From Deltaproteobacteria bacterium (GTDB taxonomy: Bacteria; Myxococcota_A; Polyangia; Polyangiales; Houyiibacteriaceae): a DNA stretch of 64,000 nt. How positions within the stretch are numbered: the first letter of the stretch is position 1; every line of letters starts with the position of its first letter. A model generated the notes under the pieces. That model was not told the DNA's origin. It saw nothing but the letters and a program-made list of their open reading frames with translations, and searched no databases. The stretch lies in contig JAADHO010000118.1 in NCBI GenBank assembly GCA_013151775.1, positions 988 through 64,987 of the forward strand, written 5' to 3'. This document shows, one piece after another, positions 39,410 through 53,160 of the stretch. The position numbers and the translations under genes are program-made.

Positions 39410-40567
39410 ATGAGTGAGTATCAGTACTACGAGTTCCGCGCCGTCGACCGGCTGCTGACGCGGGAAGAGATGAGCACGCTGAGCGGCCTGTCGTCGCGCG
39501 CCACCGTGACGCCCTCGAGCTTCATCAACGTCTACAACTTCGGTGATTTTCGCGGAGATCCCAGGGACCTCATGGGCCGCTGCTTCGACGTCTTCGTATA
39601 CATGACCAACTGGGGCACGCGCTGGCTGATGCTGCGCGTCCCGAGCCAGCTGCTCGACGACCAGGGAGCGCGCGCCTACGAGGCGGGTGACGTCCTCTCG
39701 GTGGAGCGCGCTGCCGGGGACCACACCCTCTTGTCCTTCTGCTACGAGGGCGAGGGCGGCGGCTGGGAGCAGGGCGAAGGCTGGCTGCCATCCCTGCTGC
39801 CCGTGCGCGCGGCGCTGATGGCCGGGGATGAGCGCGCCCTCTACCTTGGCTGGCTGCTCGGCGTGCAGCTCGGCACGGTGGACGACGAGACGCTCGAGCC
39901 GGCGCCCCCGCCTGGCCTCGCCGACCTCGACGACGCCCTCGAGCAGCTCGTGGACTTCCTGTGTCTCGACGACGCCCTGGTCGTTGCCGCGGGCGAGGGC
40001 AGCGACGCCAGACCGACGCGCTCGTTGGCGACCGAGGACGTCGCGGGCTGGCTCGACACGCTGCCCGGCGAGGAGAAGGACTCACTGCTGGCGGCGCTGA
40101 TCACAGCCGAGACCCCGACCCTCGCCTTGGAGCTGCGGCGGCGAGCGGCCACCGCGTGTCGGAGCGTGGTGCCGGCGAACGCGGGCGATCGCCGCAGCGT
40201 GGCCGAGCTGCGGGAGCGGGCAGACGCCCTGCGTGCAGGCTGGTCGGCGGAGGCCGCGCACAACGAGGCCGTCGAGCGAGCCCGGCTGGAGTTGGAGGCA
40301 GCCGAGCGGCGAAGGCAGCGCATCCTCGCCATGAGAGGCAAGGCGAGTGTGCTGTGGCGCAAGGTGGAGCAGCAAATCGCCCGTCGGCAGGCCCGCTCCT
40401 ACGACGCCGCGGTCTCGACGCTATGCGACCTGCGCGATCTGGCCGCGCTCGAGGGCACGACGGCGGAGTACCGCGACAAGCTCTCGGCGCTCTGCGGCGC
40501 GCAGCGCAAGAAGACGACGCTGATCGACCGCCTGCGCGCGGCGGGCCTGCTCGACGCCGAGGGCTGA
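39410..40567 (+). CDS. conserved hypothetical protein (MSEYQYYEF... family)
   Basis: 385-aa ORF with an N-terminus MSEYQYYEFRAVDRLLTREEM...FINVYNFGDFRGDP that I recognise as a recurrent uncharacterised family. No function known to me. Confidence 0.6.
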   Translation: MSEYQYYEFRAVDRLLTREEMSTLSGLSSRATVTPSSFINVYNFGDFRGDPRDLMGRCFDVFVYMTNWGTRWLMLRVPSQLLDDQGARAYEAGDVLSVERAAGDHTLLSFCYEGEGGGWEQGEGWLPSLLPVRAALMAGDERALYLGWLLGVQLGTVDDETLEPAPPPGLADLDDALEQLVDFLCLDDALVVAAGEGSDARPTRSLATEDVAGWLDTLPGEEKDSLLAALITAETPTLALELRRRAATACRSVVPANAGDRRSVAELRERADALRAGWSAEAAHNEAVERARLELEAAERRRQRILAMRGKASVLWRKVEQQIARRQARSYDAAVSTLCDLRDLAALEGTTAEYRDKLSALCGAQRKKTTLIDRLRAAGLLDAEG

Positions 40568-40633
40568 GCGGCGCGGTCCACGGCGTGACCGAAGTCACGC
40601 GGGTAGCGGAGTGGGGGGCGTAGCCTGCGAGCG

Positions 40634-41569
40634 TTGGGGGGTACCCGAGTGGGGGCTCGCAGTCGTTACGAGAGCATCGCCAAGATCGTCTTCGCCTTCA
40701 CGCGTCAGCGCACCTGGGCGCAGGCGAAGCTAGCGCGCCGCGTGGATGTGCAACCTCGTCAGCTTCGAAAGATCCTGCTCGAGCTACAAGACGCGGGCAT
40801 GCCACTCGAACGCGAGCGCGACCGCCCCCACGTCTACTGGAGCGTCCCGAAGGGCTGGCTCCCCGGCGGCGTGTCGCTGAGCGGCGAGGAGGTCGCGATG
40901 GCGCTCGGCTTGATGATCCGCCTGCCGCCAAGCGGCGACCGCGAGCGACTGCTGAACGCGCTCGCGCCCTTCGCCAAGCGGCCACCAGCGGACGCCGTGG
41001 AACACCACGGACAGCAAGGCCCCGCCGCGGACGAGCTGTGGCGGCTCGTGCCGCAGGCGATCGCCGATGAGCAAGTGCTGCGCATGCGCTATCGCTCGGC
41101 GCGCGGGGAAGCCAAGGCGAGGAGCGTGTCGCCTCAGCGCATCGACGCCGAGGCGCGCCACCTGATCGCCTGGTGCCACGAAGCGAAGGCGCTCCGGCGC
41201 TTCCACTTCAAGCGCGTGGAGCGCATCGAGGTGGACGGTTGCGACGACGGCTATGTTCGAGTCGAGCGGCGCGTGCTGGACGGCTTCATGGAGCAATCGG
41301 TGGACGGCTTCCACGACGCCAGCGCGGCGCGCGAGCTAGCGTTCCACGTGACCGCCGAGATCGCCGGCTGGGTCGCGGGAGACCTGCCCTACGGCCTGCA
41401 CCACGAGCCCGCGGACGACGGCGGCCTACGCGTCCACGGCTACGTCGCCGGTCTGGCCCAGGTCGCGCGCTACGTCGTGGGCCTGGGCGCCGAGGCCGAG
41501 GCCGAGACGCCCGAACTACGAGACGCCGTCGCCGAGCTGGCGCGGGGCGCGCTGGAGAACGCGGAGTGA
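40634..41569 (+). CDS. WYL-domain transcriptional regulator (N-terminal wHTH + WYL)
   Basis: WYL-like core VLRMRYRSARGEAKARSVSPQRIDAEARHLIAWCHEAKALRRFHFKRVERIEV. Start uncertain (TTG 40634 or GTG 40649). Confidence 0.8.
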   Translation: MGGTRVGARSRYESIAKIVFAFTRQRTWAQAKLARRVDVQPRQLRKILLELQDAGMPLERERDRPHVYWSVPKGWLPGGVSLSGEEVAMALGLMIRLPPSGDRERLLNALAPFAKRPPADAVEHHGQQGPAADELWRLVPQAIADEQVLRMRYRSARGEAKARSVSPQRIDAEARHLIAWCHEAKALRRFHFKRVERIEVDGCDDGYVRVERRVLDGFMEQSVDGFHDASAARELAFHVTAEIAGWVAGDLPYGLHHEPADDGGLRVHGYVAGLAQVARYVVGLGAEAEAETPELRDAVAELARGALENAE

Positions 41570-41578
41570 TGTGCCGGC

Positions 41579-41702
41579 AACGATCACTGGATCCGCGTTC
41601 AGTGAGCGCCAATCGATCCACCAGATGGCGCGGGGCGGTGGGGTATGTGGATGAAGTGTCAGTGTTGGTGGCGACGCACGTCTTGCTTGGGGATGCTGGA
41701 GC
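41579..41702 (+). repeat. cas3-leader-like element, copy 1 (directly after the WYL stop)
   Basis: Aligns with 42412..42518 and 43561..43680. Shared blocks are CTGGATCC-CGTTCAGTGA-CGCCAA, ATGGCGC, GTCAG, GACG(CA/TG)CGTCTTG and GCTGGAGC. Confidence 0.85.
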
Positions 41703-41709
41703 GAGAAGG

Positions 41710-42213
41710 ATGATGGCCTCAGGTCAAGAGGCGCAGCGGGCTCACTGCGCCTCCTGCAGCGCAGGAGTCATGGCGGGCGCGTTCCATCGGACCGGCGCCA
41801 TCGAGGTCTGGGGCCGAGGCACCAACCGCGTCATCGAGGCATGCCGCGCCTACGGCATCGCGGAGGCGACCTTCAAGGAGGCCTCGGGCGCCGTCACGGT
41901 GACGTTCAAGGCGGAAGTGGTCGCCGGGACAAGAGACTTGGTGCCGGGCAGGCACCAAGTCGGCACTAAGTTGGCACTAAGTCTGTACCAAGTGCAAGTC
42001 CTCGAACTTGCAGACGTTCCGCGCTCGTCGACGGACCTGATGGAACCATCGGGACGAACTGACCGAACCAAGTACCGGGACCAAGTGCTGCGACCGCTGC
42101 TTGAATCCGAGTTGCTCGAGATGACCATCCCGGACAAGCCTCGGAGCTCGAAGCAGCAGTACCGCACGACCGAGGCGGGGCGGCTAGCCCTCGCCAATGC
42201 GAGCAAGGCATGA
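41710..42213 (+). pseudogene. 3' fragment of an AlbA_2 / HATPase_c_4-type putative DNA-binding ATPase gene (C-terminal wHTH part only)
   Basis: The translation AFHRTGAIEVWGRGTNRVIEACRAYGIAEATFKE...LLEMTIPDKPRSSKQQYRTTEAG matches only the C-terminal ~150 aa of that roughly 450-500-aa family. The N-terminal two thirds are absent. Confidence 0.55.
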
Positions 42214-42354
42214 GGCATGCAGACGAGGCCAAGCCGCTGACTTTGAGCAAGATAGAGGTCCACAGGCACCGAATGGATCGGCGGCACCGTGCCGCCGACA
42301 ACGCCCGTCGACGCTGTATGTCGCGGGACCGGCGAGGCTCGCCGGCCTTCGGGA

Positions 42355-42392
42355 CCCGAGCTACGAGACGCAGTTGCCGAGCTGGCGCAGGG
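42355..42392 (+). pseudogene. 38-nt remnant of the 3' end of a second, diverged WYL-regulator gene
   Basis: 34/38 identical to 41510..41547 (the end of the intact WYL gene). Encodes PELRDAVAELAQG versus PELRDAVAELARG. Three of the 4 differences are synonymous. Confidence 0.75.
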
Positions 42393-42411
42393 AACACAAA
42401 GCTATGAGCCG

Positions 42412-42518
42412 AACGCGATCACTGGATCCCCGTTCAGTGAACGCCAATCGATCCACCAGATGGCGCAAGGCGGTGGGGTATGTGGATGAAGTGTCAGAAG
42501 CGCAGCGTCTCGTGCGTC
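42412..42518 (+). repeat. cas3-leader-like element, copy 2
   Basis: Near-identical to copy 1 over ~85 nt, and shares GTCAGAAGCG...CGTGCGTC with copy 3. Confidence 0.85.
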
Positions 42519-42541
42519 GAAGGGGTGTGATGATCCAGCCA

Positions 42542-42919
42542 TCATCCCAGTGGAAGACATCGTGTGCGCGCGGAGGCCCCGTCCAGCGTGACCACCGCGC
42601 CATCACGCAACGCAAGCGCGACCTGGGGCAGGAAGCGCTCGAGGGTGGCAGCCTGATCGACCGGCTTCATTGTGGAGCTTCCGCGCAAGACGACCACCGA
42701 GGGATTGCCTGCAGCCCGCAGCGCAAGCAGTTGCGCGAAATCCGAGTCCCGGGTGACGACGACGCGGCCGTCAAGCAGGGCGCGCTCCAATATCTCCTCG
42801 TCCCGAGCCGCGCCCATATGCAACGACTGGACATGAACCACGTCGTAGCCAGCTTCCGTGAGCACAGCGACAACCTGCGGCGACAACGCGTTGTCGATGA
42901 GCAGCCGCAGAGAACTCAC
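42542..42919 (-). CDS. PIN-like DUF5615-family putative toxin
   Basis: GTG start at 42919 overlaps the DUF433 stop (GTGA). VSSLRLLIDNALSPQVVAVLTEAGYDVVHVQSLHMGAARDEEILERALLDGRVVVTRDSDF is the typical family layout. Confidence 0.75.
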   Translation of the reverse strand: MSSLRLLIDNALSPQVVAVLTEAGYDVVHVQSLHMGAARDEEILERALLDGRVVVTRDSDFAQLLALRAAGNPSVVVLRGSSTMKPVDQAATLERFLPQVALALRDGAVVTLDGASARTRCLPLG

Positions 42920-43140
42920 TGCGCTGCGTCGTTCTCCCGCGCTGTTCTCGCAAGCTCCGCGGCGTACAGCAGGGCTTCGCGGATGTCGTCTTGCTCGAGA
43001 TCCGGATACGCGTCGAGGATCTCGGACGTCGTCATCTGCGCGACCAGACCCACGACGAGGCTGACAGGGATGCGCAGCCCACGGATACAAGGCTGCCCCT
43101 CGAGCTGGTCCGGTCGAATGGTGATGCGTGGGAAGGGCAT
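42916..43140 (-). CDS. DUF433-family putative antitoxin
   Basis: 74 aa. ITIRPDQLEGQPCIRGLRIPVSLVVGLVAQMTTSEILDAYPDLEQDDIREALLYA is the DUF433 core. Confidence 0.8.
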   Translation of the reverse strand: MPFPRITIRPDQLEGQPCIRGLRIPVSLVVGLVAQMTTSEILDAYPDLEQDDIREALLYAAELARTARENDAAQ

Positions 43141-43199
43141 AGCGCGATCGCAGTGTAGCGCGATTCGGCGGAAGCTGCGGGCGGATGAGGGAGCGCATG

Positions 43200-43420
43200 C
43201 GAGAGCATCGTGACAGCTGGGCGCTGATCAGACAAGCATTTTCTGTGTTAGCTAGAGTTGCACCTTGTAGAAAATGTATATTCTGCTAGGATGGGATTGT
43301 GAGTGAAATCCACCACAGGCTGAAAACGCCGAAAGGCTGGTCTTGCACCAAAATGTGCGTGCGAGGTCTGAGTACGTCTTCGTGGTACGCTCATGCTGTC
43401 CCGAGGCCGGGAGCCAGGTC
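43200..43420. promoter_or_regulatory. AT-rich tract between the divergent TA operon and cas3, a likely promoter region
   Basis: Only markedly AT-rich non-coding stretch in the island (43241-43300 is 23/60 G+C by count). I could not pin convincing -35/-10 boxes. Confidence 0.35.
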
Positions 43421-43452
43421 ATTCCCGCGACTTTCGCGGGCCCCTTTGAAGC
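43418..43452 (+). repeat. solitary degenerate CRISPR repeat (psi-repeat)
   Basis: GTCATTCCCGCGACTTTCGCGGGCCCCTTTGAAGC versus the array repeat CTCTCTCCCGCGAATCATCGCGGGCCCCATTGAAGC. Both 7-nt stem arms are identical, 11/12 of the 3' tail is identical, and the loop is 3 nt rather than 4. Confidence 0.85.
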
Positions 43453-43560
43453 GCTCGCGTTGCTCCTTGCACGCAGAGGCGAGAAAAAGTCTGCCTCGCC
43501 GGCCTCGGGACGCTTCAAGTCCCAGCCCTCCGGACAGGAAGCACTCTGGGCGTGGGCGAG

Positions 43561-43680
43561 ATCCTGGATCCACGTTCAGTGAGCGCCAACGGGTGCACCG
43601 AATGGCGCAGCGGGGCTGCGTATGAAGAAGACAATGTCAGAAGCGAGCGAGACGTGCGTCTTGGTCGTGGACGCTGGAGC
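43561..43680 (+). repeat. cas3-leader-like element, copy 3 (ends 10 nt before the cas3 ATG)
   Basis: Aligns with copies 1 and 2. More diverged in its central part. Confidence 0.8.
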
Positions 43681-43690
43681 CAGTTGAACG

Positions 43691-46123
43691 ATGAGCACCT
43701 ACGAGCAGTTCTTTTCCGACATCACAACCTTCGCGCCCTTTCCCTATCAGGCGCGCCTGGGCACCGAGGCGTGGCCGAGCTTGTTGGACGTGCCGACTGG
43801 CCTGGGCAAGACGGCCGCCGTCGTGATCGCCTGGCTGCACAAGCGGCTGACCGATGATGGCGACACAGGGCGGCGGCTCGTCTACTGCCTGCCCACCCGG
43901 GTCTTGGTGGACCAGACGCGTTTGGCAGCCGAGGCATGGGTCAAGGCCGCCGCGCCCCGCTTTCGCGACGCCGGCCGCGCCGCGCCTAGCGTCCACGTCC
44001 TGCGAGGCGGAGAGCTCGACGAGCGCTGGCAGGGCGAGCCCGAGTCGGAAGCCATCCTGATCGGCACACAGGATATGCTGCTCTCGCGCGCCTTGAATCG
44101 AGGCTTCGCCATGTCGCCCTCGCGCTGGCCGATGCACTTCGCCTGGCTGAACAACGACGCCTTCTGGGTCTTCGACGAGATCCAGCTGATGGGTGTGGGC
44201 GTCGAGACGTCCGCCCAACTCCAGGCCTTCCGCGACGGATGGGGCGTCGAGGGCCCGAGCCGCTCGCTGTGGATGAGCGCCACCGTCGGCGCCGGACAGC
44301 TCGCGACCGTCGACCACCCGGCGCCCTCGGGTGGCTTCCCTCGGCACACGTTGCTGGCAGAAGACCGGGCGTTGGATCGAGTGCTCGAACGCACCCAGGC
44401 CAAGAAGCGAGTCATCCTGTCGGAGTTGGCCCTCGGCTCTAGCAAGAAGGCAGACGAGGCGGCTCACCTCGAGGCGTTGGCGAATGAGGTGGCCACGGCA
44501 CACGAGGAGCGGGGCGGCCTGACGCTCGTGATCCTCAACTCCGTGAAGCGTGCTCGCGGATTGCGCGCGCTGCTGAGCAAGAAGGTCGTGGAGCTCGGGC
44601 TGATCCACTCGCGATTCCGCGCGCCGGACCGACGCGTACAAGAGGCCATGCTGGCGGGCGAGGCTGATCGCGTCGTGGTGGCGACGCAGGCGATCGAGGC
44701 GGGTGTCGACGTCTCTGCGCGCACGCTCTTCACGGAGCTCGCCCCCTGGCCCTCGATGATCCAGCGCATCGGGCGCTGCAATCGCTACGGGAAGGAAGCA
44801 CAGGCAGAAGTGCGGGTGGTCGATCTTCGGGTCGAAGACGATGACGCTCTGGCCCTGCCCTACGATCCGGCCGCCATGCTGCAGGCGCGTGGTCTGCTGC
44901 ACGATCTTGGCGACGACGCCTCACCCGCACGCCTGTCCGCGATCAGCTTCTCGCCGCCCGTGGTGGTGCGTCCGGTCGTTCGACGGCGCGATCTGCTGCA
45001 GCTCTTCGACACCACGCCGGATCTCTTCGGCAACGACGTCGACGTCTCCCGCTTCATTCGCGACGATCAAGACACCGACGTACAGGTCTTCTGGAGGTCC
45101 TTCGAGGGCACGCCCGCTGCCGAGCTGCCCGGGCCTGGTCACGGTGAACTCTGCGCAGTGTCCATCGGCGCGGCACGTGATCTGGTCGAGAAGAAACTGA
45201 AGAGCAAGCGCGCCAAGGCCAAAGGCGAGGCGACCAAGCGGCTCTGGGCCTACGCCTGGGACCGCACCCGCGGGGAGTGGGCGCGCGTCGAGCGGCCGCA
45301 TCCGGGTCAGGTCTTGCTGCTCCACGTCAGCGCGGGCGGGTACGATCCGGAGCTCGGCTTTACGGGAGAACTCCGTGGCGACGTGCCCGCTGTCCAGCCC
45401 GCGGAGCCCAGCCCGCGAAGCGATGCCGACCAGCTGGCCGGTGACGCCCGCAGCCAGGGCGAGCGCTGGGTGGAGCTGAGCGCACACCTCGAACACGTCG
45501 AGGCCGAGGCGCGCGAGCTGAGCGCCCGGCTGGATGTATCGGCCGCCGACGTGCTCGGGCGCGCAGGACGCTGGCATGACGTCGGCAAGGCGCACCCGGA
45601 GTGGCAACGCAAGATCGTCCAGCCGGCGGTGGACGCGGGGCAGCCTCCGCCCACCCCAGACGGCGTGTGGGCCAAGTCGCCGCACCGGCTGCGGCCGCCG
45701 AGCGGCGCGCGCAAGTACCTGCGCCACGAGCTGGCCTCAGCGCTGGCGTGGTTGACGCACGCGCCCGACGAGGAGCCGGACCGCGCGCTCATCGCCTACC
45801 TGCTCGCGGCGCACCACGGCAAGGTGCGCATGGCCATCCGATCGGGGCCTCAAGAAGAGCCCGCTCCGGACGGGCGCCTCTTCGCGCACGGGATCTGGGA
45901 CGGTGACGAGCTGCCGAGCGTGAGGCAGCCCGCGGGCGCGAGCGTGCCGCCGACGACTCTGCGGCTGCATCTGATGCAGCTTGGCGCCGGCAGCTGGCGA
46001 GAGCTGAGCATAGGCCTGCTCGAGCAGCACGGCCCCTTCCGCCTGGCGTGGCTCGAGAGCGCGCTGAGAGCCGCGGACTGGCGCGCGAGTCGCAAAGAGA
46101 CCGAAGGAGCGTACGATGAATGA
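43691..46123 (+). CDS. cas3: type I-G Cas3 (helicase with a C-terminal HD nuclease domain)
   Basis: Motif I DVPTGLGKTAAV, motif II VFDEIQLMG, C-terminal HD region GRWHDVGKAHPEWQ...LAAHHGKVR. The helicase-then-HD order is the I-G/I-U hallmark. Confidence 0.92.
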   Translation: MSTYEQFFSDITTFAPFPYQARLGTEAWPSLLDVPTGLGKTAAVVIAWLHKRLTDDGDTGRRLVYCLPTRVLVDQTRLAAEAWVKAAAPRFRDAGRAAPSVHVLRGGELDERWQGEPESEAILIGTQDMLLSRALNRGFAMSPSRWPMHFAWLNNDAFWVFDEIQLMGVGVETSAQLQAFRDGWGVEGPSRSLWMSATVGAGQLATVDHPAPSGGFPRHTLLAEDRALDRVLERTQAKKRVILSELALGSSKKADEAAHLEALANEVATAHEERGGLTLVILNSVKRARGLRALLSKKVVELGLIHSRFRAPDRRVQEAMLAGEADRVVVATQAIEAGVDVSARTLFTELAPWPSMIQRIGRCNRYGKEAQAEVRVVDLRVEDDDALALPYDPAAMLQARGLLHDLGDDASPARLSAISFSPPVVVRPVVRRRDLLQLFDTTPDLFGNDVDVSRFIRDDQDTDVQVFWRSFEGTPAAELPGPGHGELCAVSIGAARDLVEKKLKSKRAKAKGEATKRLWAYAWDRTRGEWARVERPHPGQVLLLHVSAGGYDPELGFTGELRGDVPAVQPAEPSPRSDADQLAGDARSQGERWVELSAHLEHVEAEARELSARLDVSAADVLGRAGRWHDVGKAHPEWQRKIVQPAVDAGQPPPTPDGVWAKSPHRLRPPSGARKYLRHELASALAWLTHAPDEEPDRALIAYLLAAHHGKVRMAIRSGPQEEPAPDGRLFAHGIWDGDELPSVRQPAGASVPPTTLRLHLMQLGAGSWRELSIGLLEQHGPFRLAWLESALRAADWRASRKETEGAYDE

Positions 46124-48257
46124 CAGCGTCCACAGGCACGAGCTCGGCGGATGCTCACCCACACCCCTCGCGGGCTACCTCAAGTCCCTGGGCATCCTGC
46201 GCCTGGTGAGCGAGCAGGCGGATGCCACGGCCCGAGGCGCCTGGCGTCACGAGTGCTTCACCCTCTGGACCCGCCTGGATCGCGAAGCGCTCGAGCGCTT
46301 CTTTCTGGAGCAGTACGCGCCGACGCCGGTGGTCACACCATGGAATGGTGGCAGTGGTTTTTACCCGAAGGACAACAAGGACGGCATCGACTTCATCGAG
46401 TCGTCCACGTCCAGTCGCTTCGCCGGTTACCGCGACACCATCCGTCAGGCTCGCAAGCTGCTGTCGGAGCTGAATCTCGCCGAGAAGCCCGACGCGAAGC
46501 ACGAGAAACCGCGCCTGCTCGCCGCGTGCCGAGGAAGCTTCAGCGACACAGCCCTCGACTGGCTCGACGCGGCCTATGTGTTGGGCGACACCGACCCCAA
46601 ATATCCTCCGGTGCTGGGCACCGGCGGGAACGAGGGGCGACTGGAATTCGCTAACAACCTGATGCAGCGGCTGTCCGAGCTGCTCGATGCCGAGGGTGCA
46701 CCTCAGCCACCCGCACGAGCATGGCTCTGGGCCACGCTCTGGGGCCAAGCAGTGGCGGGTCTGCGCGCAGTGTCAGTGGGTCAATTTCAACCCGGGGCGG
46801 CCGGTGGCCCCAACGCCGCCGCCGGTTACGAAGGCAAGGCGAACGTCAACCCGTGGGACTTCGTCTTGATGATCGAGGGCGCGCTGATGCTCGGCGGCAG
46901 CGCCGTGCGCCGTTATGATGTCAGCGGCTCACGAGGCCGCGCGGCCTTCCCGTTCGCGGTCGGAGCCACGGCGTCGGGCTACGCCAGCGCCGCGAGCGCG
47001 GACGAGGGGGACTCACGAGGAGAGCTCTGGTTGCCGCTGTGGAGCGAGCCCACGAGCGCGCAGGAGCTGCGCGCCCTGATGGGCGAGGGTCGCGCGGATA
47101 TCCAAGGCCGGCGCGCGCGCACAGGCCTCGACTTCGCCCAGGCCGTGTCGTCGCTCGGCGTGGACCGCGGGATCGAGTCTTTCGAACGCTATGGCTTTCA
47201 TGTGCGCAACGGGCTGTCCTACTTCGCCACCACGCTGGGTCGCTATCAGGTCGGGACCTCCCAACATGTCGGCCTGCTGCGCGACCTCGACACCTGGCTG
47301 GATCGCAACCGGGGCAAGTGTGCAGGCGACACGGCGCCCGCCTCCGTCCGCCGCGCGCTGCGCCGCTTCGAGACGGCGGCCATGCTGATGGCGTCACGCG
47401 ACGACGTCACCAGCGTCGGTGAAGCGCTGCTGAGCCTGGGCTCCCTCGAGGCCGCCCTGGGATCGAGCCTGACCTTCTGCAGCAAGAGCTTCGTGCCGCC
47501 GCTGCCGCCCCTGCGTCGCGCATGGATCGAGGCGACGCGATCGGATTCGCCCGAGATGCGCCTCGCCGACGCCCTCGCCAGCGTGGCAGACCGCTACGGC
47601 GGCCTCGATCTGCCCATCCGGTCGCAGGTCGAGCCCGTAGAACGACGGGGCCGTTTCTGGACCTTCGCCAAGACGACGCATGAGGTGCTCTGGCATCAGG
47701 GCTCGCTCGTCCGCTCGATGAACAGCGTCTTCGAGCGCCGCGTGCTGCTCGCCAGCACATCCGAAGCGCGCTTCGCCGATCGAGGCCGCATCTTCAGCGG
47801 TCTCGGCGACATCGACGCCTTCATCCTGGGCCGAACGGATGACAAGCTGCTCGAGCGCTGGTTCCGAGCTTGCCTGCTGCTCGAGCGCCCAGAGGCGCGC
47901 GCCTTCCCCCCAGCGCGCACTCAGCGGCCGGTACCCTACGCCGGCTACGGCCTTCCCAAGCTCACCTTCGCGCCCGGTCCGGTCGGCGACCAGCACATCC
48001 CCATCACGCCGCGCATCCTCCGCCTGATGCGCACCGGGCGTGCCGTCGACGCCATGCAGGCCACCGCGCGCCGCCTTCGCGCGAGCGGGCTCGCGCCCAC
48101 CACGCATGAAGTCCACGCCGATCGTGAGCGCATGCGGCGCTGCGCCGCGGCGCTGCTCTTTCCCATCTCCCACGCAGACACCGAACGCCTCGCCGGCCGC
48201 TACCTCAGCGCCGGCACCAACACGCCCCTGTCCCATCAACCCACGGAAAGCCCATGA
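46116..48257 (+). CDS. csx17: type I-G large subunit Csx17 (Cas8g/Cas8u)
   Basis: 713 aa. N-terminus LGGCSPTPLAGYLKSLGILRLVSEQAD is typical of Csx17. Sits between cas3 and csb1 and overlaps cas3 by 8 nt. Confidence 0.85.
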   Translation: MNDSVHRHELGGCSPTPLAGYLKSLGILRLVSEQADATARGAWRHECFTLWTRLDREALERFFLEQYAPTPVVTPWNGGSGFYPKDNKDGIDFIESSTSSRFAGYRDTIRQARKLLSELNLAEKPDAKHEKPRLLAACRGSFSDTALDWLDAAYVLGDTDPKYPPVLGTGGNEGRLEFANNLMQRLSELLDAEGAPQPPARAWLWATLWGQAVAGLRAVSVGQFQPGAAGGPNAAAGYEGKANVNPWDFVLMIEGALMLGGSAVRRYDVSGSRGRAAFPFAVGATASGYASAASADEGDSRGELWLPLWSEPTSAQELRALMGEGRADIQGRRARTGLDFAQAVSSLGVDRGIESFERYGFHVRNGLSYFATTLGRYQVGTSQHVGLLRDLDTWLDRNRGKCAGDTAPASVRRALRRFETAAMLMASRDDVTSVGEALLSLGSLEAALGSSLTFCSKSFVPPLPPLRRAWIEATRSDSPEMRLADALASVADRYGGLDLPIRSQVEPVERRGRFWTFAKTTHEVLWHQGSLVRSMNSVFERRVLLASTSEARFADRGRIFSGLGDIDAFILGRTDDKLLERWFRACLLLERPEARAFPPARTQRPVPYAGYGLPKLTFAPGPVGDQHIPITPRILRLMRTGRAVDAMQATARRLRASGLAPTTHEVHADRERMRRCAAALLFPISHADTERLAGRYLSAGTNTPLSHQPTESP

Positions 48258-49240
48258 ACCTCGAAGCATTGAACGAATCCCCCCGCCTCCTCCTCCAGGC
48301 CGAGCTGAAGCCCGTGCAGGGCACCCGCTTTCAGCCCACCGGCTTCCCCGACCTCGGCGCGGCCGAGTACAGCGTGACCGACGGGCGCAACATGCGAAAC
48401 ATGCTGCTGCTCGAGTCCGCCCAGAGCATGGCCAACCGCCTCGAGGCCGCCTGCTGGGACGAAGGCCAGGGTGATCTGGTACCCGCGCTTCAGGGCCTGC
48501 CCTACGTCAAGTCCACGCTGCCCGATGGGACGGTGACCAGCTCGATCTTGGAGGCCCATCGTCTCAACTCTCCCTACCTCTGCGACGCGACGGGCTACGA
48601 GGTGATCAAGGACGCCGTAGGCTTCATCAAGGACGCGCCCTTCGACCGCCGCAAGCTGGCGACAGCATTGCTGCGCTTCGACCCGAACAGCCTGCTGCAC
48701 GGCATCTTCCTCGAGAAGATCGGAGGCGTCGTGCGCCTGCCGCGCGCGCTCTCAGCGTTCGTCGAGGCCGAAGACGTCCACGTCGCGGCCGCGGGTGGTG
48801 TGAAGTTCGACCGCGTGCAGCCGACCTCGGCGGGCACCAACACCAAGTACGGCTCAGCCAACGAGGGCTACGGAAATGTGCCGTATCATCGCGACGAGTA
48901 CACGGCGAAGAGGATCGTCGCCTACTTCAATCTCGACCTCGCGCTGCTGCGGGGCCTAGGACTGAAGGACGCCGCCCTGCGGCTGATGACCACGCTGGCG
49001 CTCTACAAGATCCGGCGCTTCCTCGAGGCGGGCCTGCGCCTGCGCACGGCCTGCGATCTCGACGTGGTGGGCGAGGTCGAGGTGCAGCGGCCCGACGGCT
49101 TCGCCCTGCCCACGACGGAAGCCCTGGAGCAGGCTCTGCCGGCGCTGATCTCCGAGTGCGCACCTCTCTTCAACGATCCACGCGTGCTCGAACTCACCTA
49201 CGACAAGGACAAGAAGTCCGCCCGAACCAAGAAGGACTGA
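48254..49240 (+). CDS. csb1: type I-G Cas7 (Csb1, GSU0053 family)
   Basis: LQAELKPVQGTRFQPTGFPDLGAAEY signature. ATGA overlap with csx17. Confidence 0.88.
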   Translation: MNLEALNESPRLLLQAELKPVQGTRFQPTGFPDLGAAEYSVTDGRNMRNMLLLESAQSMANRLEAACWDEGQGDLVPALQGLPYVKSTLPDGTVTSSILEAHRLNSPYLCDATGYEVIKDAVGFIKDAPFDRRKLATALLRFDPNSLLHGIFLEKIGGVVRLPRALSAFVEAEDVHVAAAGGVKFDRVQPTSAGTNTKYGSANEGYGNVPYHRDEYTAKRIVAYFNLDLALLRGLGLKDAALRLMTTLALYKIRRFLEAGLRLRTACDLDVVGEVEVQRPDGFALPTTEALEQALPALISECAPLFNDPRVLELTYDKDKKSARTKKD

Positions 49241-49243
49241 CCC

Positions 49244-50827
49244 ATGGTCACGCTCGAGATCCGGTTCCCCGGCGGGCGCTATCACGCCACGCCGTGGGAT
49301 CACCACGTCAACGAGGGAGTGGTCGAGTGGCCCCCCTCTCCCCTACGCATCGCGCGCGCTCTGCTGGCCACCTGGCACCTCAAGGCGCGCGACGAGCTCT
49401 CCGAATCGGCCGTGCGAAGCTTGTGCGAGTCCTTGGCGTCGAGTCTACCCATCTACGAGCTGCCGGAAGATGTCACCCCGGCACACACGCGCCACTACAT
49501 GCCCCTCGGAGGAACGAAGACCGGCAAGATCTTCGACGCCTTCCTTCGGATCGACGCCTCGCGTATCTTGGTGATCACTTGGCCAAACGTGGAGCTCGAC
49601 GACCCCGAGCTCGACGCGCTGCGCGTGCTGGCGCAGCGCCTGAGCTACCTCGGCCGTGCCGAGAGCTGGGTCGATGCGCGCGTGGCCGAGCGCCCCGTGG
49701 AGCGGCTCAACGCGGCGCCTGTCGAGCACCTCGACACAGGAGAGATCGTGCCCGTGCTCTGCGCCTACACCCCCGCAGAGTACGAGCGTTGGCGTGAGGC
49801 CGAGGTCGACCGGCAGCTCAGCCTCGAACTCGAGCAGCAGCGTCGCAAGGACATCGCGAAGGGAAAGCCTCCCGAGAAGACCAGACTCTCCAAGCGAAAG
49901 CGTGAGGGCATCAAGGCGAGCGTTCCCGCAGATCTCTTCGCGGCCTTGCACGTCGACACCACCCTGCTGCGCAAGCAGGGCTGGAGCGCGCCGCCGGGCA
50001 CACGCTGGATTAGCTACCGGCGACCCACACTGGCGCAGCCGCGCACTCCCAAACACGAGGCGAACGCGCCGAGCCCGTGCGCCGCGCGCTTCGCCGTGAG
50101 CGGGGCCGTACTGCCGCGGCTCACCGAGGCGTTGCGCTTTGGCGAGGCGGTGCGTGGCGCGCTTGGCCAGAGCCGCCTGCGCGTCTTTCACGGCAAGGAC
50201 GACGAAGGCCGACCTCTACTCGGTCATGAGCACGCCTTCTTCCTGCCCGAGTCCCACGGCCACGAGGGTCGCATCACGCACCTCTCCCTGTACGCTCGCG
50301 AGGGCCTCGATGCGAACGCGCAGGCGGCCATCGACAAGCTGGTCTCGGGCGAGATCAGGCTCGAGAAGGACGCCACCCACCCCATGAAGCTGACGCTGAT
50401 CGGCCTTGGCGAAAGGGACGAGCTCGGCAACACGGGCGCTCCACTCTTCGCCGAGGCGCGGGAGTGGTGCTCCCTGACGCCCTTCATCCCCACGCGACAC
50501 CTCAAGCGCAAGCGCAGCGGCGCGCCCAAGTTCGATGCTCACGGCCGAGCCATCGGCTCACCGGAGCACGATGTGCTGCGCCTCTTCGAACTGGCGGGCC
50601 TGCCCGCTGTGGAGCACATCGAGCCCACCGAGGGCGTGAAGCTCGGCGGGCGCATCGTGCGCTGGCTCGACTTCTACCGCTGGCGAGCGCGACATGGGCG
50701 AGGCGCGCGCGGTGACTCGCGTGGCTTCGGCTTCCGGGTCGTCTTCGCGCAGGCTGTGCGGGGCCCCATCGCCGTCGGCTTTGGTGCTCACTTTGGCTTG
50801 GGAATCTTCGGGCCCGAGTCGTCGTGA
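49244..50827 (+). CDS. csb2: type I-G Cas5-Cas6 fusion (Csb2, GSU0054 family)
   Basis: N-terminus LEIRFPGGRYHATPWDHHVNEGVVEWPPSPLRIARALLATW is typical of Csb2. 527 aa. Confidence 0.88.
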   Translation: MVTLEIRFPGGRYHATPWDHHVNEGVVEWPPSPLRIARALLATWHLKARDELSESAVRSLCESLASSLPIYELPEDVTPAHTRHYMPLGGTKTGKIFDAFLRIDASRILVITWPNVELDDPELDALRVLAQRLSYLGRAESWVDARVAERPVERLNAAPVEHLDTGEIVPVLCAYTPAEYERWREAEVDRQLSLELEQQRRKDIAKGKPPEKTRLSKRKREGIKASVPADLFAALHVDTTLLRKQGWSAPPGTRWISYRRPTLAQPRTPKHEANAPSPCAARFAVSGAVLPRLTEALRFGEAVRGALGQSRLRVFHGKDDEGRPLLGHEHAFFLPESHGHEGRITHLSLYAREGLDANAQAAIDKLVSGEIRLEKDATHPMKLTLIGLGERDELGNTGAPLFAEAREWCSLTPFIPTRHLKRKRSGAPKFDAHGRAIGSPEHDVLRLFELAGLPAVEHIEPTEGVKLGGRIVRWLDFYRWRARHGRGARGDSRGFGFRVVFAQAVRGPIAVGFGAHFGLGIFGPESS

Positions 50828-52656
50828 GCGGCGACGACCAGGCCGCGCCCGACCCCGAGCCCGACTCGCCAGCTCCTCCGCGCGCGAAGCACCTGCGCCC
50901 CGACCGCCATCCCCTCGCACTTCCGAGCGCCGCGCCCGACGCGGTGCCGGCGCGCATGGTCAACGAGGTGCTCTACTGCGAGCGCCTCATGTACCTCGAG
51001 TGGGCGCAGGGAGAGTTCGCCGACAACCACTACACCGTTCACGGGCGGGTCGTGCACAAGCGGGCCGACAAGCCCGGCAAACCGATTCGTAAGCCCGGCG
51101 CCAAGAAGGCCGCGAGCAAGACGAGTCCAGAGCAGGACGAGGCGTCCGAGGCCGAGCAAGAGGACCTGCCCTACACCGCCCGCAGCGTCTGGCTGACGTC
51201 CACCCGCTTGGGCCTGACGGCGCGCATCGACATCGTCGAGGCCGATCGCGAGGGCGTCGTGCCCATCGAGTACAAGCGCGGCAAGGCGCCGGACTTGCCA
51301 GACGGCGCGTGGCTGCCGGAGCGGGCACAGCTCATGGCGCAAGCGCTGCTGCTGCGGGACCACGGCTACACGGTGGAGCGCGCGGAGATCTACTTCGCCG
51401 GGGATCGGAAACGCGTGCCCATCGAGCTGTCAGCCGAGCTCGAGGCCGAGACGCGCGGCGCCATCGCGCGAGCGAAAGAGCTGACGGAGGCAGGCGCGAT
51501 CCCCGAACCGCTGCTCGACAGCCCGAAATGCAGCGGCTGCTCGCTGGTGGGCATCTGTCTGCCCGACGAGGTCAACTTGCTCTCCATCGGCGAATCGGAG
51601 CCGAGCGCGAGCGAGGCCACCGAGCCGCAGCTGCGCCGCCTGCACCCCGCACGTGACGAGCGGCTGCCCGTCTACGTGCAGGCGCACGCGGCGCGCATCG
51701 GGCTGAGCGGCGACTGCCTGGTGATCAAGACGCCCGAGGGAAAGCAAGAGGCACGGCTCCCGAACACCTCGCAGCTCGCCGTCTTCGGCAACGTGCAGCT
51801 GACGACGCCGGCGATGCGTGCGCTGCTCGACCGTGAGATCCCCCTCACCTTCTTCTCCTACGGCGGCTGGTTCCTTGGCCGGCTCGTGGGCCACGGCAGC
51901 AAGAACGTGGAGCTGCGGGTGGCACAACACCGGGGCGCCGCGGACCGCAGCTTCTGCGTGAAGCTCGCGCGCGGGCTCGTAGCGTCGAAGATCCTGAACT
52001 GCCGCACCCTCTATCGGCGCAACGCGGAGTCACCCGACGCGACGACGCTGGGCGAGCTGGAGAGGCTCGCTCAGGCTGCACGCGAGGCGGTGTCTCTGGA
52101 GTCGCTCTTGGGCTACGAGGGCACGGCGGCGCGGCTCTACTTCTCGGTGTTCAATCAGATGCTGAAGGGCCAGGCGGCTGTGGGCGCCTTCGACATGCAC
52201 GGCCGCAACCGCCGCCCTCCGCGGGATCCGATCAATGCGATGCTATCCTTCGCCTACAGCTTGCTCGCCAAGGAGCTGGCGCTGATGTGCGCGAACGTGG
52301 GGCTCGATCCGATGTTGGGGTTCTATCATCAGCTCCGCTATGGGAGGCCGGCCCTGGCGCTGGACTTGATGGAGGAGTTTCGGCCGATCGTGGCGGATTC
52401 GGTAGTCGTAGCGGCGCTGAACAACGGGGTGCTGACGGAATCTGATTTCGTGCGCAGCCATGTGGGCGTGGCGATGCGTCGCCCAGGGCGCAAGCGCTTC
52501 ATCGCGGCGTATGAGCGCCGGATGGATCAGCTGGTGACGCACCCGGTGTTCGGCTACCGCGTGAGCTACCGGCGCGTGTTCGAGATCCAGGCGCGCCTGT
52601 TGGGCCGCGTGCTGCTGGGCGAACTCGAGGAGTACCCGGAGTTCCGGACGCGATGA
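50824..52656 (+). CDS. cas4-cas1: Cas4-Cas1 fusion
   Basis: Cas4 part: MVNEVLYCERLMYLEW and Cys cluster CSGCSLVGIC. Cas1 part: INAMLSFAYSLLAKE, GLDPMLGFYHQLRYGRPALALDLMEEFRP. GTG start overlaps the csb2 stop. Confidence 0.92.
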   Translation: MSGDDQAAPDPEPDSPAPPRAKHLRPDRHPLALPSAAPDAVPARMVNEVLYCERLMYLEWAQGEFADNHYTVHGRVVHKRADKPGKPIRKPGAKKAASKTSPEQDEASEAEQEDLPYTARSVWLTSTRLGLTARIDIVEADREGVVPIEYKRGKAPDLPDGAWLPERAQLMAQALLLRDHGYTVERAEIYFAGDRKRVPIELSAELEAETRGAIARAKELTEAGAIPEPLLDSPKCSGCSLVGICLPDEVNLLSIGESEPSASEATEPQLRRLHPARDERLPVYVQAHAARIGLSGDCLVIKTPEGKQEARLPNTSQLAVFGNVQLTTPAMRALLDREIPLTFFSYGGWFLGRLVGHGSKNVELRVAQHRGAADRSFCVKLARGLVASKILNCRTLYRRNAESPDATTLGELERLAQAAREAVSLESLLGYEGTAARLYFSVFNQMLKGQAAVGAFDMHGRNRRPPRDPINAMLSFAYSLLAKELALMCANVGLDPMLGFYHQLRYGRPALALDLMEEFRPIVADSVVVAALNNGVLTESDFVRSHVGVAMRRPGRKRFIAAYERRMDQLVTHPVFGYRVSYRRVFEIQARLLGRVLLGELEEYPEFRTR

Positions 52657-52946: not shown

Positions 52947-53160
52947 CGCGCATGAGCGCGCCGCCGGCCGCGAGAGGTCCAGTGGCGCAAAATCTACTGG
53001 CACCGCTCGCATAACAGCTAAGTCCTTGAAAACCGTATACGAATTCGGTCATGGTGGAGGCCCGACCCACAGCACCAGCAAGGCCGGAGGCCGCCACCAC
53101 GACTCACCCCTCGCAAACCAACCGCTAGCCCACCGACATCACTTAGATTTTGAGCAGTCC
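52947..53160 (+). promoter_or_regulatory. CRISPR leader
   Basis: 214 nt between the cas2 stop and the first repeat. Contains AT-richer patches (AACAGCTAAGTCCTTGAAAACCGTATACGAATTC, CACTTAGATTTTGAG). Confidence 0.6.

Follow-up and report, generated by a model that had tools for sequence, protein, structure and literature searches.

Why does the interval between a WYL-domain regulator gene and a type I-G cas operon carry the same ~125-nt element three times in direct orientation, and what does this element do? The locus lies in the window (the whole 64-kb stretch of DNA analysed) and contains the following features.

40649-41569, plus strand: WYL regulator gene (wHTH-WYL-WCX, PafC-like, cas-associated; Pfam WYL 8e-12, WCX 1.6e-8)
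41582-41709, plus strand: element copy E1, with an ATG following at 41710; SOS-like box 41587-41603; inverted repeat GCGCCA 41606-11 / TGGCGC 41626-31; TGTCAG-N16-CGTC 41657-41682; GCTGGAG 41695-41701
41710-42213, plus strand: C-terminal fragment of a HATPase_c_4 / Fic-like_C gene, 167 codons, still open
42355-42413, plus strand: WYL', the 3'-end remnant of a second WYL gene, contiguous with E2
42417-42537, plus strand: element copy E2, ending 5 nt short of the stop of the convergent PIN-like gene; SOS-like box 42422-42438; TGTCAG-N17-CGTC 42492-42518; beta-type 3' half containing GGGGTGTGA
42542-42919, minus strand: intact DUF5615 (PIN-like) toxin gene (Pfam DUF5615 8e-23, PIN_10 4e-7)
42916-43140, minus strand: intact DUF433 antitoxin-type gene (Pfam DUF433 3.5e-20)
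43179-43555, plus strand: segment missing from the related locus L005, with an AT-rich tract and an orphan CRISPR repeat
43560-43690, plus strand: element copy E3 in front of the cas operon, with the cas3 ATG at 43691; SOS-like box 43564-43580; inverted repeat 43583-88 / 43603-08; TGTCAG-N16-CGTC 43635-43660; GCTGGAG 43673-43679
43691-52656, plus strand: type I-G cas operon (cas3g, csx17/cas8g1, csb1, csb2, cas4g/cas1g; NCBIfam equivalog matches)

The gene calls of an earlier sequence-only reading (WYL, truncated HATPase_c_4 gene, DUF5615/DUF433, orphan repeat, type I-G operon) were correct, and the triplicated element that it described is real. The regulator, identical to P0001 (306 aa), is matched by the cas-associated WYL model of PADLOC at 4e-24, and its best solved relative in a PDB search is PafC (1e-6). 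The HATPase_c_4 match of the gene fragment covers only positions 36-89 of the 89 in the profile (Fic-like_C 9e-13, Pfam); its GC3 of 77% is typical for coding sequence. The AT-rich tract (~43215-43300) has 43% GC, and the orphan repeat (43417-43452) is ~88% identical to the repeats of the CRISPR array, which begins at 53160, after the cas operon. A 26-nt core of the element, CTGGATCCNCGTTCAGTGARCGCCAA, has exactly three matches in the 64-kb window (41587, 42422 and 43564, all on the plus strand), with chance matches in 0 of 100 shuffles, and a repeat search recovered the same three copies, the others being 94% and 76% identical to E1 over 68 nt. With a six-copy profile the element maps to 41582-41699, 42417-42537 and 43560-43677 (E-values 1e-28 to 1e-32), so that E2 reaches ~20 nt past its previously proposed end at 42518, and E1 and E3 are alignable as far as the ATG at 41710 and 43691. 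The 38-nt WYL remnant reported in front of E2 is present as well: 42355-42392 is identical to 41510-41547 at 34 of 38 positions, three of the four differences are synonymous in the WYL frame, and homology runs on across a 10-nt deletion into E2.

The element is closely linked to the regulator gene. Its start in related metagenome contigs is always ~20 nt or less from the stop codon of a WYL orthologue (66% amino acid identity in L002, L004, L005 and L007, 58% in L003, where it overlaps the called stop), and no true match was found in one genome per species (185,579 species) or in viral contigs. With only WYL-adjacent matches in metagenome contigs besides, it is not an abundant genome-wide repeat. 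In L005 the 3' half alone is kept next to cas3, and in L014 the TGTCAG/CGTC pattern precedes a 54%-identical cas3g by ~125 nt.

Four parts make up the element, namely an imperfect palindrome at its 5' end (CTGGAT-N4-GTTCAG, the best-conserved palindrome), an inverted repeat (GCGCCA-N14-TGGCGC), the boxes TGTCAG-N16/17-CGTC, and a leader with GCTGGAG and then ATG. TGTCAG is invariant in all seven copies compared and CGTC follows 16-17 nt further on in six of them, separated by an unconserved spacer; within the window this pattern occurs in the three copies only (0.52 expected). The near-palindromic block noted earlier (GACGCACGTC, TCGTGCGTCG, GACGTGCGTC) is present in every copy, but it consists mostly of that variable spacer and only its CGTC is invariant. 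In the SOS-like box, three of the four spacer positions vary among copies, whereas the only half-site change is one base in one lineage. In L003 the second inverted repeat is disrupted, and the WYL reading frame crosses the 5' half. In a sample of about six independent sequences, all from one clade, the 5' half is 79-81% identical between lineages and its 45-nt core 93%, whereas 4-fold degenerate WYL sites are only 44-50% identical, i.e. saturated; thus, the element is conserved far above neutral sites, as would suit a control region. The element is non-coding, and purifying selection acts on it.

We consider it probable that the element is the control region (operator, promoter and leader) of cas operons paired with a PafC-like clade of WYL regulators. 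From its conservation we infer promoter and operator functions as well as the candidate binding proteins. The 5' half, which begins no more than ~20 nt from the WYL stop, would form an operator-like block composed of the SOS-like palindrome and the second inverted repeat, while the 3' half would provide the promoter-like TGTCAG/CGTC boxes, followed by ~30 nt with GCTGGAG (including a Shine-Dalgarno-like GGAG) and the start codon. Transcription of cas3g might start a few bases past CGTC, under the control of the neighbouring WYL regulator, of LexA or of both, bound to the 5' half. Characterised relatives of the WYL regulator sense single-stranded DNA, and CRISPR-Cas expression would, if this reading is true, be tied to DNA damage or infection. 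Both boxes are kept in all three copies; should the promoter assignment be right, E1 would drive the truncated open reading frame, and transcripts from E2 would run antisense into the toxin-antitoxin genes. To our knowledge, TGTCAG is not a known -35 consensus. A sigma-70-type promoter was looked for and not found, nor was there an ECF sigma gene among the annotated neighbours.

LexA boxes usually overlap the core promoter, whereas the SOS-like box precedes the putative -35 element by ~60 nt and does not sit over a recognisable core promoter. The LexA (SOS) box of Myxococcus xanthus and deltaproteobacteria has the consensus CTRHAMRYBYGTTCAGS (PMC9705874), and the element resembles it as an imperfect 16-bp palindrome (CT..A.-N4-GTTCAG) with a variable 4-nt spacer; its right half-site is perfect, its left one fits no less well than those of validated boxes, and its flank, GTTCAG(G)TGAGC, is similar to the recA2 box. 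The fit amounts to 13 of 17 positions of a consensus that is that of M. xanthus and may not be that of the host, and M. xanthus boxes with two mismatches bind LexA weakly or not at all (PMC9705874). A relaxed pattern derived from this consensus, CTRNANNNNYGTTCAG, occurs within the window in the three element copies only (0.05 expected), and among all loci compared in element copies and in L008/L009 only, there at a type I-F locus, 9 nt past the stop codon of a WYL gene with 41% identity. At the type I-E locus L012, whose WYL gene is divergent, CGTTCAGCGTGCGCCAA precedes cas3 by ~45 nt and reads in the cas3 direction (0.04 expected). We give these echoes in L008 and L012 little weight, since most of the distant WYL homologues lack the element and the sequences are few. 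A literature search found no LexA-controlled CRISPR-Cas operon.

One precedent for a WYL regulator with several operator boxes in a single defence island is BrxR, whose R-BOX1 and R-BOX2 (11-bp arms, 5-bp spacer) precede brxR and brxA (Picton et al. 2022, PMC9122601). Our locus shares with BrxR a wHTH-WYL-WCX regulator encoded beside the defence operon that it presumably controls, a control region with inverted repeats and an island with more than one box, but the element follows the regulator gene and is a composite of ~125 nt, binding is putative, and the regulator is nearer to PafC in the PDB search. The CapW operator of CBASS offers another comparison. As cited in PMC9122601, Sll7009 is a WYL repressor of the type I-D CRISPR locus of Synechocystis; there, as here, the gene of a WYL-domain regulator stands next to a CRISPR-Cas locus, whose control by the regulator is putative in our case, and subtype and phylum differ. 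PafBC-dependent promoters, tGTCgg(N10)tA(N3)T, are recognised by 'sigma adaptation' (PMC8635444). PafC is the closest solved relative of our regulator and the conserved box holds the GTC triplet read by the PafB HTH domain, but TAnnnT 10 nt past the box is absent in every copy, and our locus has a single WYL gene, in contrast to the heterodimeric PafBC. ECF41 promoters read TGTCACA-N16-CGTC, with CGTC as a typical ECF -10 element (Wecke et al. 2012, PMC3426412). The element has the same two-box layout with a 16±1 nt spacer, a -10 CGTC and a -35 starting with TGTCA, but its -35 is TGTCAG, the next gene is cas3 and not a COE gene, and an ECF41 sigma gene was not seen nearby.

No support was found for a structured RNA, a mobile element or a small protein. 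An RNA role, which we regard as unlikely, would make the element a regulator in the cas3 5'-UTR, the 3'-UTR or terminator of WYL, or a small RNA with two functional hairpins (CUGGA..UUCAG and GCGCCA-N14-UGGCGC). While both inverted repeats can pair as hairpins in every copy (94% of cells paired), none of the 12 pairs shows a compensatory change, L003 breaks three to four pairs of the second helix without compensation, and single-sequence folds are no more stable than shuffles (z -1.1 to -1.5). The position directly after the WYL stop would suit a terminator or processing site, but a U-tract is absent after either hairpin, a terminator scan found none, and nothing in Rfam matched, either at the gathering threshold or at E<=1. 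WYL domains of other systems do bind single-stranded nucleic acids; however, loops and flanks are conserved like the stems, a better fit to sequence-specific DNA recognition.

Recombination has clearly shaped the copies. In their 5' halves E1 pairs with E2 (94%) against E3 (76-77%), while two types can be told apart among the 3' halves (one in E1, E3 and L005b, the other in E2, L007 and L005a), and the 3' half of E3 is 79-82% identical to the partial copy near cas3 in L005. Judging from these pairings, the three copies are mosaics, scars of recombination and not a designed array. Such chimeras are expected from crossovers inside the element, where, or at whose edges, breakpoints cluster in the window and in L005, as had been proposed. 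Moreover, both intervening segments are flanked by direct repeats, and past the shared ..GAACGATGA end the partners differ (cas3g, HD-first cas3, truncated HATPase gene). It is nevertheless quite improbable that the element itself catches cargo between its copies, whether as a recombination site of the att or integron kind, as a mobile cassette end, or as a homology patch at which circles integrate by the Campbell mechanism. It has neither terminal inverted repeats nor target-site duplications, no integrase, transposase or recombinase is among the annotated genes near the copies, and it is missing from the species-level and viral searches and never found away from a WYL gene. The segment between E1 and E2 ends in illegitimate joints within genes and not at the element: one lies within the HATPase_c_4 gene, the other within WYL', and both abut sequence without homology to element or WYL. 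As homologous recombination on conserved sequence needs no dedicated function, recombination complements the control-region reading and does not replace it.

Neutral duplication debris without function, left by local slippage or intergenic duplication, is very unlikely; the region is indeed decaying (truncated gene, WYL remnant, orphan repeat), but the element is conserved across lineages, both invariant boxes stand at fixed spacing in all three copies, and the copies differ by 6-24%, are mosaic and have different nearest relatives, and thus did not come from recent local duplication. A small protein or leader peptide starting over the WYL stop (TGATG in E1, GTGA in L004 and L005) is hardly credible, since the one frame open across all copies, despite its conserved opening peptide LD(P/R)RSVSAN, its ATGA end overlapping the cas3 start in L007 and a WYL reading frame continuing through the 5' half in L003, is not constant relative to WYL between loci, is unrelated between copies past the first 16 codons with arbitrary ends (in E3, 101 codons out of frame into cas3), lies in sequence with GC3 of 59-65% in all three frames versus 75-87% in neighbouring genes, and at 42 codons would by our estimate be expected open about one time in three at this GC.

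With the element read as a control region, the triplication of a stretch that normally occupies the WYL-cas3 interval as one copy seems an interesting yet fairly ordinary duplication at a defence locus, because the copies are mosaics left by recombination. The sequence-only reading had proposed an ancestral WYL-element-cas3 junction that twice received cargo. Its starting state exists, as a single-copy WYL-element-cas3g order is found in one related type I-G locus assembled twice (L004, L007), and the breakpoints at the element agree with it, but the two insertions are not supported as proposed. The second cargo, between E2 and E3, is not private, because a reverse DUF433 gene or its remnant precedes cas3 in three related contigs, in one of them with element copies on both sides: L005 has WYL-element-DUF433(reverse)-partial element-cas3, with a DUF433 80% identical in amino acids to that of the window, L003 has a DUF433 remnant at the same place, and in the distant I-G locus L015 a reverse DUF433 lies directly upstream of cas3g. 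The L005 layout comes close to an arrangement, intact genes between copies in related genomes, for which that reading saw no need of an insertion history. Two simple insertions at one junction also leave the mosaic pairings of 5' and 3' halves unexplained, and the first cargo is explained as well by two WYL-controlled loci that accreted and then suffered deletions as by insertion. The probable order of events would leave E3 as the working cas3 leader. E2 with its 60-nt WYL' remnant may be the leftover of a second WYL-element unit upstream of the reverse DUF433/PIN pair, and a WYL-element upstream of a reverse DUF433 is a layout common to the window and L005. E1 would go with the intact WYL gene, and its present downstream partner is the truncated HATPase_c_4 gene, which begins where, after E3, the cas3 ATG sits.

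Between the WYL regulator gene and the cas3g operon lie three direct copies (E1, E2 and E3, 5' to 3') of a non-coding element of about 125 nt, E, which we would class as a regulator-linked control region with recombination scars, that is, as a well-defined regulatory element and not a new kind of system. The features of the window, a metagenome contig sequence (named homologues come from Polyangiaceae, Haliangium, Minicystis and Labilithrix), are as follows, with the E copies placed by a profile HMM built from six copies (E-values 1e-28 to 1e-32):

40649-41569, HTH-WYL-WCX regulator gene (Pfam WYL and WCX, PADLOC, PafC similarity)
41582-41699, E1
41710-42213, C-terminal 167 codons of a HATPase_c_4/Fic-like_C protein (HATPase_c_4 match begins at profile position 36 of 89)
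42417-42537, E2
42542-42919, minus strand, intact DUF5615 (PIN-like) gene (Pfam)
42916-43140, minus strand, intact DUF433 gene (Pfam)
43215-43300, AT-rich tract preceding the orphan repeat
43417-43452, orphan CRISPR repeat with about 88% identity to those of the array, about 240 nt 5' of cas3g
43560-43677, E3
43691 onward, complete type I-G operon (cas3g, csx17, csb1, csb2, cas4g/cas1g)
53160-63945, very long CRISPR array running past the window end (36-nt repeat CTCTCTCCCGCGAATCATCGCGGGCCCCATTGAAGC)

A 26-nt core of E, CTGGATCCNCGTTCAGTGARCGCCAA, has exactly three matches in the 64-kb window (41587, 42422 and 43564, all on the plus strand) and none in any shuffle of it. A repeat search also grouped these three copies, the other two matching copy 1 at 94% and 76% over 68 nt. 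The second copy recognised by the sequence-only reading is genuine, and the profile takes its end about 20 nt further, to 42537. E1 and E3 can be aligned through GCTGGAG up to an ATG, at 41710 and 43691, respectively. E2 is preceded by WYL', the remnant of a second WYL gene, which was correctly described from the start: 42355-42392 matches 41510-41547 at 34 of 38 nt, and three of the four differences are synonymous in the WYL frame. The remnant runs into E2, interrupted by a 10-nt deletion. A stretch resembling E3 (42266-42284, 16 of 19 nt) is not recovered by the profile and is treated as chance, not as a fourth copy. In the truncated HATPase_c_4/Fic-like_C ORF after E1, three to four tandem copies of the 11-nt unit GGCACYAAGTC (41951-41993) lie between the matches to the two domains.

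E is, judged by its distribution, a clade-specific companion of this WYL gene and not a dispersed repeat, because it is placed after orthologous WYL genes and has no true genome-wide matches. The closest WYL proteins (P0002 and P0003, 66% and 58% identity) have E at the 3' ends of their genes too. In one relative, assembled twice (L004 and L007), a type I-G locus that has Cas8g2 shows the single-copy order WYL-E-cas3g, the state for which the sequence-only reading had proposed a locus alignment; L003 has WYL-E-cas3, its cas3 with an N-terminal HD domain, and L005 has WYL, a full E (L005a), a reverse DUF433 gene, the 3' half only of a second E (L005b) and an HD-first cas3. A core pattern of 21 specified bases gave no true match across 185,579 species, each represented by one genome, a single match in Amycolatopsis being confined to the pattern itself and dismissed as chance. 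Relaxed to 20 specified bases, the pattern matched four JGI metagenome contigs, three with E directly after an orthologous WYL gene; the fourth match, inside a coding region, is again chance. This metagenome scan missed the window's contig, L002 and L003 despite their matching the pattern, and the negatives of so incomplete a collection are weaker. Viral contigs held no match to the E pattern and no related locus, and tblastn of the WYL protein against plasmids found no match. The concern that E might be an abundant genome-wide repeat is thereby laid to rest for the window and for the public genome and viral scans, which held no further copies. The E profile had no significant match in four loci of Cas3g relatives without an adjacent WYL gene of the same clade (L013, L014, L015, L021), and the loci of distant WYL homologues (30-43% identity; L010, L016-L018, L021) are without E, only L008 and L012 having a partial box.

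Conservation of E points to functional non-coding DNA. When the window is compared with the L004, L005 and L003 lineages, fourfold degenerate sites of the WYL gene are 44-50% identical, which, given 87% GC3, means saturation; identity to L007 and L005a is 79-81% over the 5' half of E, whose 45-nt core is 93% identical. One reading frame is open through E in all copies, with only the first 16 codons conserved, and the third-position GC of E is 59-65% in every frame against 75-87% in neighbouring genes. For these two reasons E is not taken to be coding, and a small ORF or leader peptide is ruled out. A structured cis-regulatory RNA or sRNA is likewise rejected: single-sequence folds are no more stable than shuffles (z -1.1 to -1.5), the covariation term of RNAalifold is unfavourable, compensatory changes occur in none of the 12 pairs of two hairpins (one helix is broken in L003, uncompensated), and Rfam has nothing at the gathering threshold or at E<=1. 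A MITE, IS end or integron attC-like site is discarded on the lack of terminal inverted repeats and of extra copies in the window or public scans, no recombinase genes being found among the annotated neighbours of the E copies, and a tRNA- or tmRNA-derived att site on ARAGORN finding neither gene in the window.

The element has four parts. The first is a palindrome, CTGGAT-N4-GTTCAG, in which the half-sites vary at one base in one lineage (T6 to C, in L005a and L002) and the spacer at three of four positions (CCGC, CCCC, CCAC, CCAT, CGAC). It shares with the Myxococcota LexA/SOS box an imperfect palindrome (CT-N8-GTTCAG), half-sites of the CTGAAC / GTTCAG type and a 4-nt spacer. A relaxed SOS pattern, CTRNANNNNYGTTCAG, matches the window three times, always in E, against 0.05 expected, and across all 21 fetched loci it matches only E copies and L008/L009, where it is found in a type I-F locus, 9 nt past the stop codon of a WYL gene with 41% identity, and agrees with the M. 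xanthus LexA consensus at 15 of 17 positions (manual count). That consensus for M. xanthus and other deltaproteobacteria is CTRHAMRYBYGTTCAGS; validated M. xanthus boxes include CTACACGTCTGTTCAGG (lexA) and CTAAAAGCGCGTTCAGG (recA2), with a weaker box at pafBC, and boxes with two mismatches bind LexA weakly or not at all (PMC9705874). On the plus strand E reaches 13 of 17 positions, with no match at up to three mismatches, and only E3 read in reverse comes within three; E is therefore only a candidate member of the LexA-box family. The lexA and recA promoters of the host lie outside the window. The second part consists of an invariant flank, TGAGCGCCAA, and an inverted repeat, GCGCCA-N14-TGGCGC; a related string, CGTTCAGCGTGCGCCAA, lies about 45 nt 5' of cas3 in the type I-E locus L012, which has a divergent WYL gene.

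The third part follows after about 20 variable nt and begins with (A/G)TGTCAG, invariant in all seven copies; CGTC comes 16-17 unconserved nt after TGTCAG in six of them, the exception being L005a, where a 3-nt deletion has removed it. Two conserved boxes separated by a fixed length of free sequence are the signature of a promoter, and TGTCAG-N16/17-CGTC is accordingly described here as a promoter-like pair of boxes. In the window the pair occurs only in the three E copies, against 0.52 expected, and it recurs about 125 nt upstream of cas3g in L014. The near-palindromic block that had first drawn attention (GACGCACGTC and variants) dissolves into the CGTC box and the last bases of the variable spacer before it. 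The fourth part is a leader, about 30 nt long and containing GCTGGAG, that ends at the start codon. A scan of 40400-44000 for sigma-70 promoters and intrinsic terminators found none, and inspection by eye gave no sigma-54 match and one weak minus-strand sigma-70 candidate (TTGGCG-17-CAGGAT) under the tool threshold.

Several known control elements resemble parts of E. CGTC is the usual -10 element of ECF promoters, and those of ECF41 read TGTCACA-N16-CGTC (PMC3426412); E shares the two boxes, the 16±1 nt spacer and the CGTC -10 in six of seven copies, but its upstream box is TGTCAG instead of TGTCACA, and whereas ECF41 promoters precede COE or ECF41 sigma genes, E precedes cas3, the truncated HATPase_c_4 gene or, antisense, the toxin-antitoxin (TA) pair. 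Of the neighbours of E that were annotated, none is a sigma gene. With the PafBC promoter (tGTCgg, N10, tAnnnT) E has the GTC core of the -26 element in common, but TAnnnT at N10 is lacking in all copies. E also parallels R-BOX-like WYL operators in layout, with inverted repeats placed between regulator gene and target operon; CTGGAT-N4-GTTCAG and GCGCCA-N14-TGGCGC are both conserved in sequence, and the island has three copies of E. The WYL regulator BrxR has several operator boxes per defence island, R-BOX1 and R-BOX2 (PMC9122601), and Sll7009 is mentioned there by citation as a WYL regulator beside a CRISPR locus. There are precedents for WYL regulators encoded next to defence loci, as there are for LexA boxes and for ECF-type promoters; in the literature we found no description of E, of a LexA-like box before a Myxococcota CRISPR operon or of a recurrent DUF433/PIN neighbour.

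Compared with the wHTH-WYL-WCX regulators of defence and DNA damage (PafC, DriD, BrxR, CapW type), the adjacent regulator has a WYL domain followed by the WCX dimerisation domain (PF13280, 8e-12; PF25583, 1.6e-8; both over cut-offs), an HTH_PafC match on its N-terminus that is under cut-off (E=0.009), and a match to the PADLOC model of cas-associated WYL proteins (4e-24, residues 7-289). The nearest solved structure is PafC (1e-6); across the family alignment, conservation is highest at the N-terminus. The regulator gene adjoins type I-G cas genes in the window, where the array of about 140 or more repeats (TRF, 137.5 copies of period 73) follows and an IrrE/ImmA-like M78 peptidase and a SEC-C-motif protein are among the upstream neighbours; homologues adjoin I-G, I-E, I-F and HD-first cas3 loci. 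The family would appear to regulate more than CRISPR loci, as some homologues stand beside non-CRISPR genes. One 40%-identical homologue (L018) neighbours a 378-aa protein and then an RNase_H_2/AAA_11/AAA_12 helicase, and another of the same identity (L017) transposases. In L010, another type I-G locus, an 812-aa SMC/AAA_23-type ATPase and a 121-aa protein lie between the WYL gene and cas3g (L010:6986-9786). Upstream of the WYL gene, a motif, AAGTCACGCGG, is kept between lineages (window 40580-40660; L004:290-350; L002:1085-1150), and a 17-nt direct repeat, GGGTAGCGGAGTGGGGG / GGGTACCCGAGTGGGGG, 38 nt apart, overlaps the start codon; together they are a candidate promoter or autoregulatory site of WYL itself. 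In L003, at least three tandem copies of a unit of about 38 nt, CGACATCAACGACGCACCATCCGTGGACGCNGGT, lie 5' of the WYL gene (L003:1-120).

The three copies of E are mosaics. In their 5' halves E1 and E2 are 94% identical, E3 is 76-77% identical to both, and L007 and L005a are 92% identical; the 3' halves fall into an alpha type (E1, E3 and L005b, with E3 and L005b 79% identical) and a beta type with an extra GGGAGTGTGA (E2, L007 and L005a). The 5' and 3' groupings differ, and E1 therefore joins a 5' half like that of E2 to a 3' half of the alpha type. WYL' differs from WYL at three of about 12 third codon positions, which bears out the initial view of a diverged homologue; the two genes are diverged alleles or paralogues and not a fresh duplication.

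From these patterns we infer at least two events. The layout of E, a reverse toxin/antitoxin module, E and cas3 probably predates the split from the L005 lineage, because it is common to the window and L005, and the present WYL-E1 unit would later have joined upstream of the WYL'-E2 unit. Between E1 and E2 (about 41710-42354, the "cargo 1" of the sequence-only reading), both ends abut DNA without E or WYL homology, one lying within the HATPase_c_4 gene and the other within WYL'. This structure is explained equally well by two models. One is Campbell-type or unequal homologous recombination in about 150 nt of WYL-tail and E homology, E1 and E2 sharing identical runs of 25-29 nt; in the other, two WYL-controlled loci accreted in tandem and then underwent deletions. 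In three cases homology ends at nearly the same point (..GAACGATGA in E3 and L005b, ..GGATGATG in E1), past which the partners are cas3g, an HD-first cas3 and the truncated gene, and E is thus a recurrent breakpoint. Of the insertion history first proposed, the clustering of breakpoints at the element holds; what has to be given up, in view of the L005 layout, is a private insertion of "cargo 2", the DNA between E2 and E3.

The TA pair in this DNA is a conserved cas3 neighbour and no private insertion, its DUF433 gene having counterparts upstream of cas3 in three other loci. L005 has a full-length DUF433 gene (L005:1529-1753; 80% aa and 78.6% nt identity), reverse and between the WYL-proximal E and the cas3-proximal partial E, as in the window; L003 has a remnant between E and cas3 (L003:1334-1447, residues 34-72), and L015, with a 54%-identical cas3g, a reverse gene (L015:3-248) 250 nt 5' of cas3g. 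Among these four loci with a reverse DUF433 before cas3, the DUF5615 PIN-like partner is present in the window only, and the cas3 types differ (I-G with Csx17, HD-first cas3 twice, distant I-G). DUF433 and cas3 may form a toxin-antitoxin/cas3 divergent unit that has been conserved. In comparison with L005, 43179-43622 is additional in the window; this segment contains the 5' half of E3 as well as the AT-rich tract and the orphan repeat. The AT-rich tract and the leader of the main array are not homologous. The closest relative of Cas3g (70%) is that of L013, where a CRISPR array stops about 530 nt before cas3g (L013:1-80), and the orphan repeat may be the leftover of such an upstream array. 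A CreR/CreA-type mini-CRISPR role is rejected for want of a local target, the 45-nt pseudo-spacer after the orphan repeat having no match of at least 9 nt in the cas3 upstream region.

In the mechanism we propose, E3 would act as operator, promoter and leader of the cas3g operon, with proteins on the 5' half of E gating the promoter in its 3' half, and the adjacent WYL regulator and LexA as candidate binders. L005, which has only the 3' half of E next to cas3, suggests that this half alone would suffice for activity. Characterised WYL relatives respond to ssDNA (PMC13004042, PMC11662680 and PMC11804915). Such gating would make CRISPR-Cas expression responsive to DNA damage or infection. Both boxes are retained in E1 and E2; E1 may fire into the truncated ORF and E2 antisense into the TA pair or, alternatively, both might titrate regulators. 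A bolder version, which strikes us as improbable when taken as a whole, would make E a portable DNA-damage-responsive cassette that travels with WYL genes and has two inputs, LexA via the SOS-like box and the ssDNA-sensing WYL regulator. It would be a homology anchor for swaps of whole cas operons (Csx17-type I-G, Cas8g2-type I-G, HD-first cas3) and for capture of TA or other defence genes, and E2 would fire antisense into DUF433/PIN, so that CRISPR-Cas induction lowers antitoxin supply and toxin-mediated dormancy is coupled to adaptive immunity.

Read more narrowly as promoter and operator, E would offer a compact control region for a widespread class of cas-linked WYL regulators, with candidate half-sites, a candidate promoter and three natural variants, and it gives a hint of a connection between CRISPR-Cas and the DNA-damage response in this locus. 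The region also illustrates how a conserved regulatory sequence can serve as a recombination patch that shuffles defence modules, with the DUF433/PIN TA pair as a recurrent cas3 neighbour in the lineage. Were the promoter and operator reading wrong, an ordinary set of recombination scars would be left.

Two further repeat features lie apart from E. In L012, 3' of the WYL gene of this type I-E locus (L012:6960-7130), about 130 nt are enclosed by a perfect inverted repeat of 25 nt, GCTAGAGCACCGACCGGTTCGAATC ... GATTCAAACCGGTCGGTGCTCTAGC. The structure has the appearance of a MITE or long hairpin, and one of its arms is similar to the T-arm of a tRNA. The window also holds two 18-nt tandem repeat arrays, at 18919-19112 and 20403-20519, with 10.8 and 6.5 copies and 92-93% matches.
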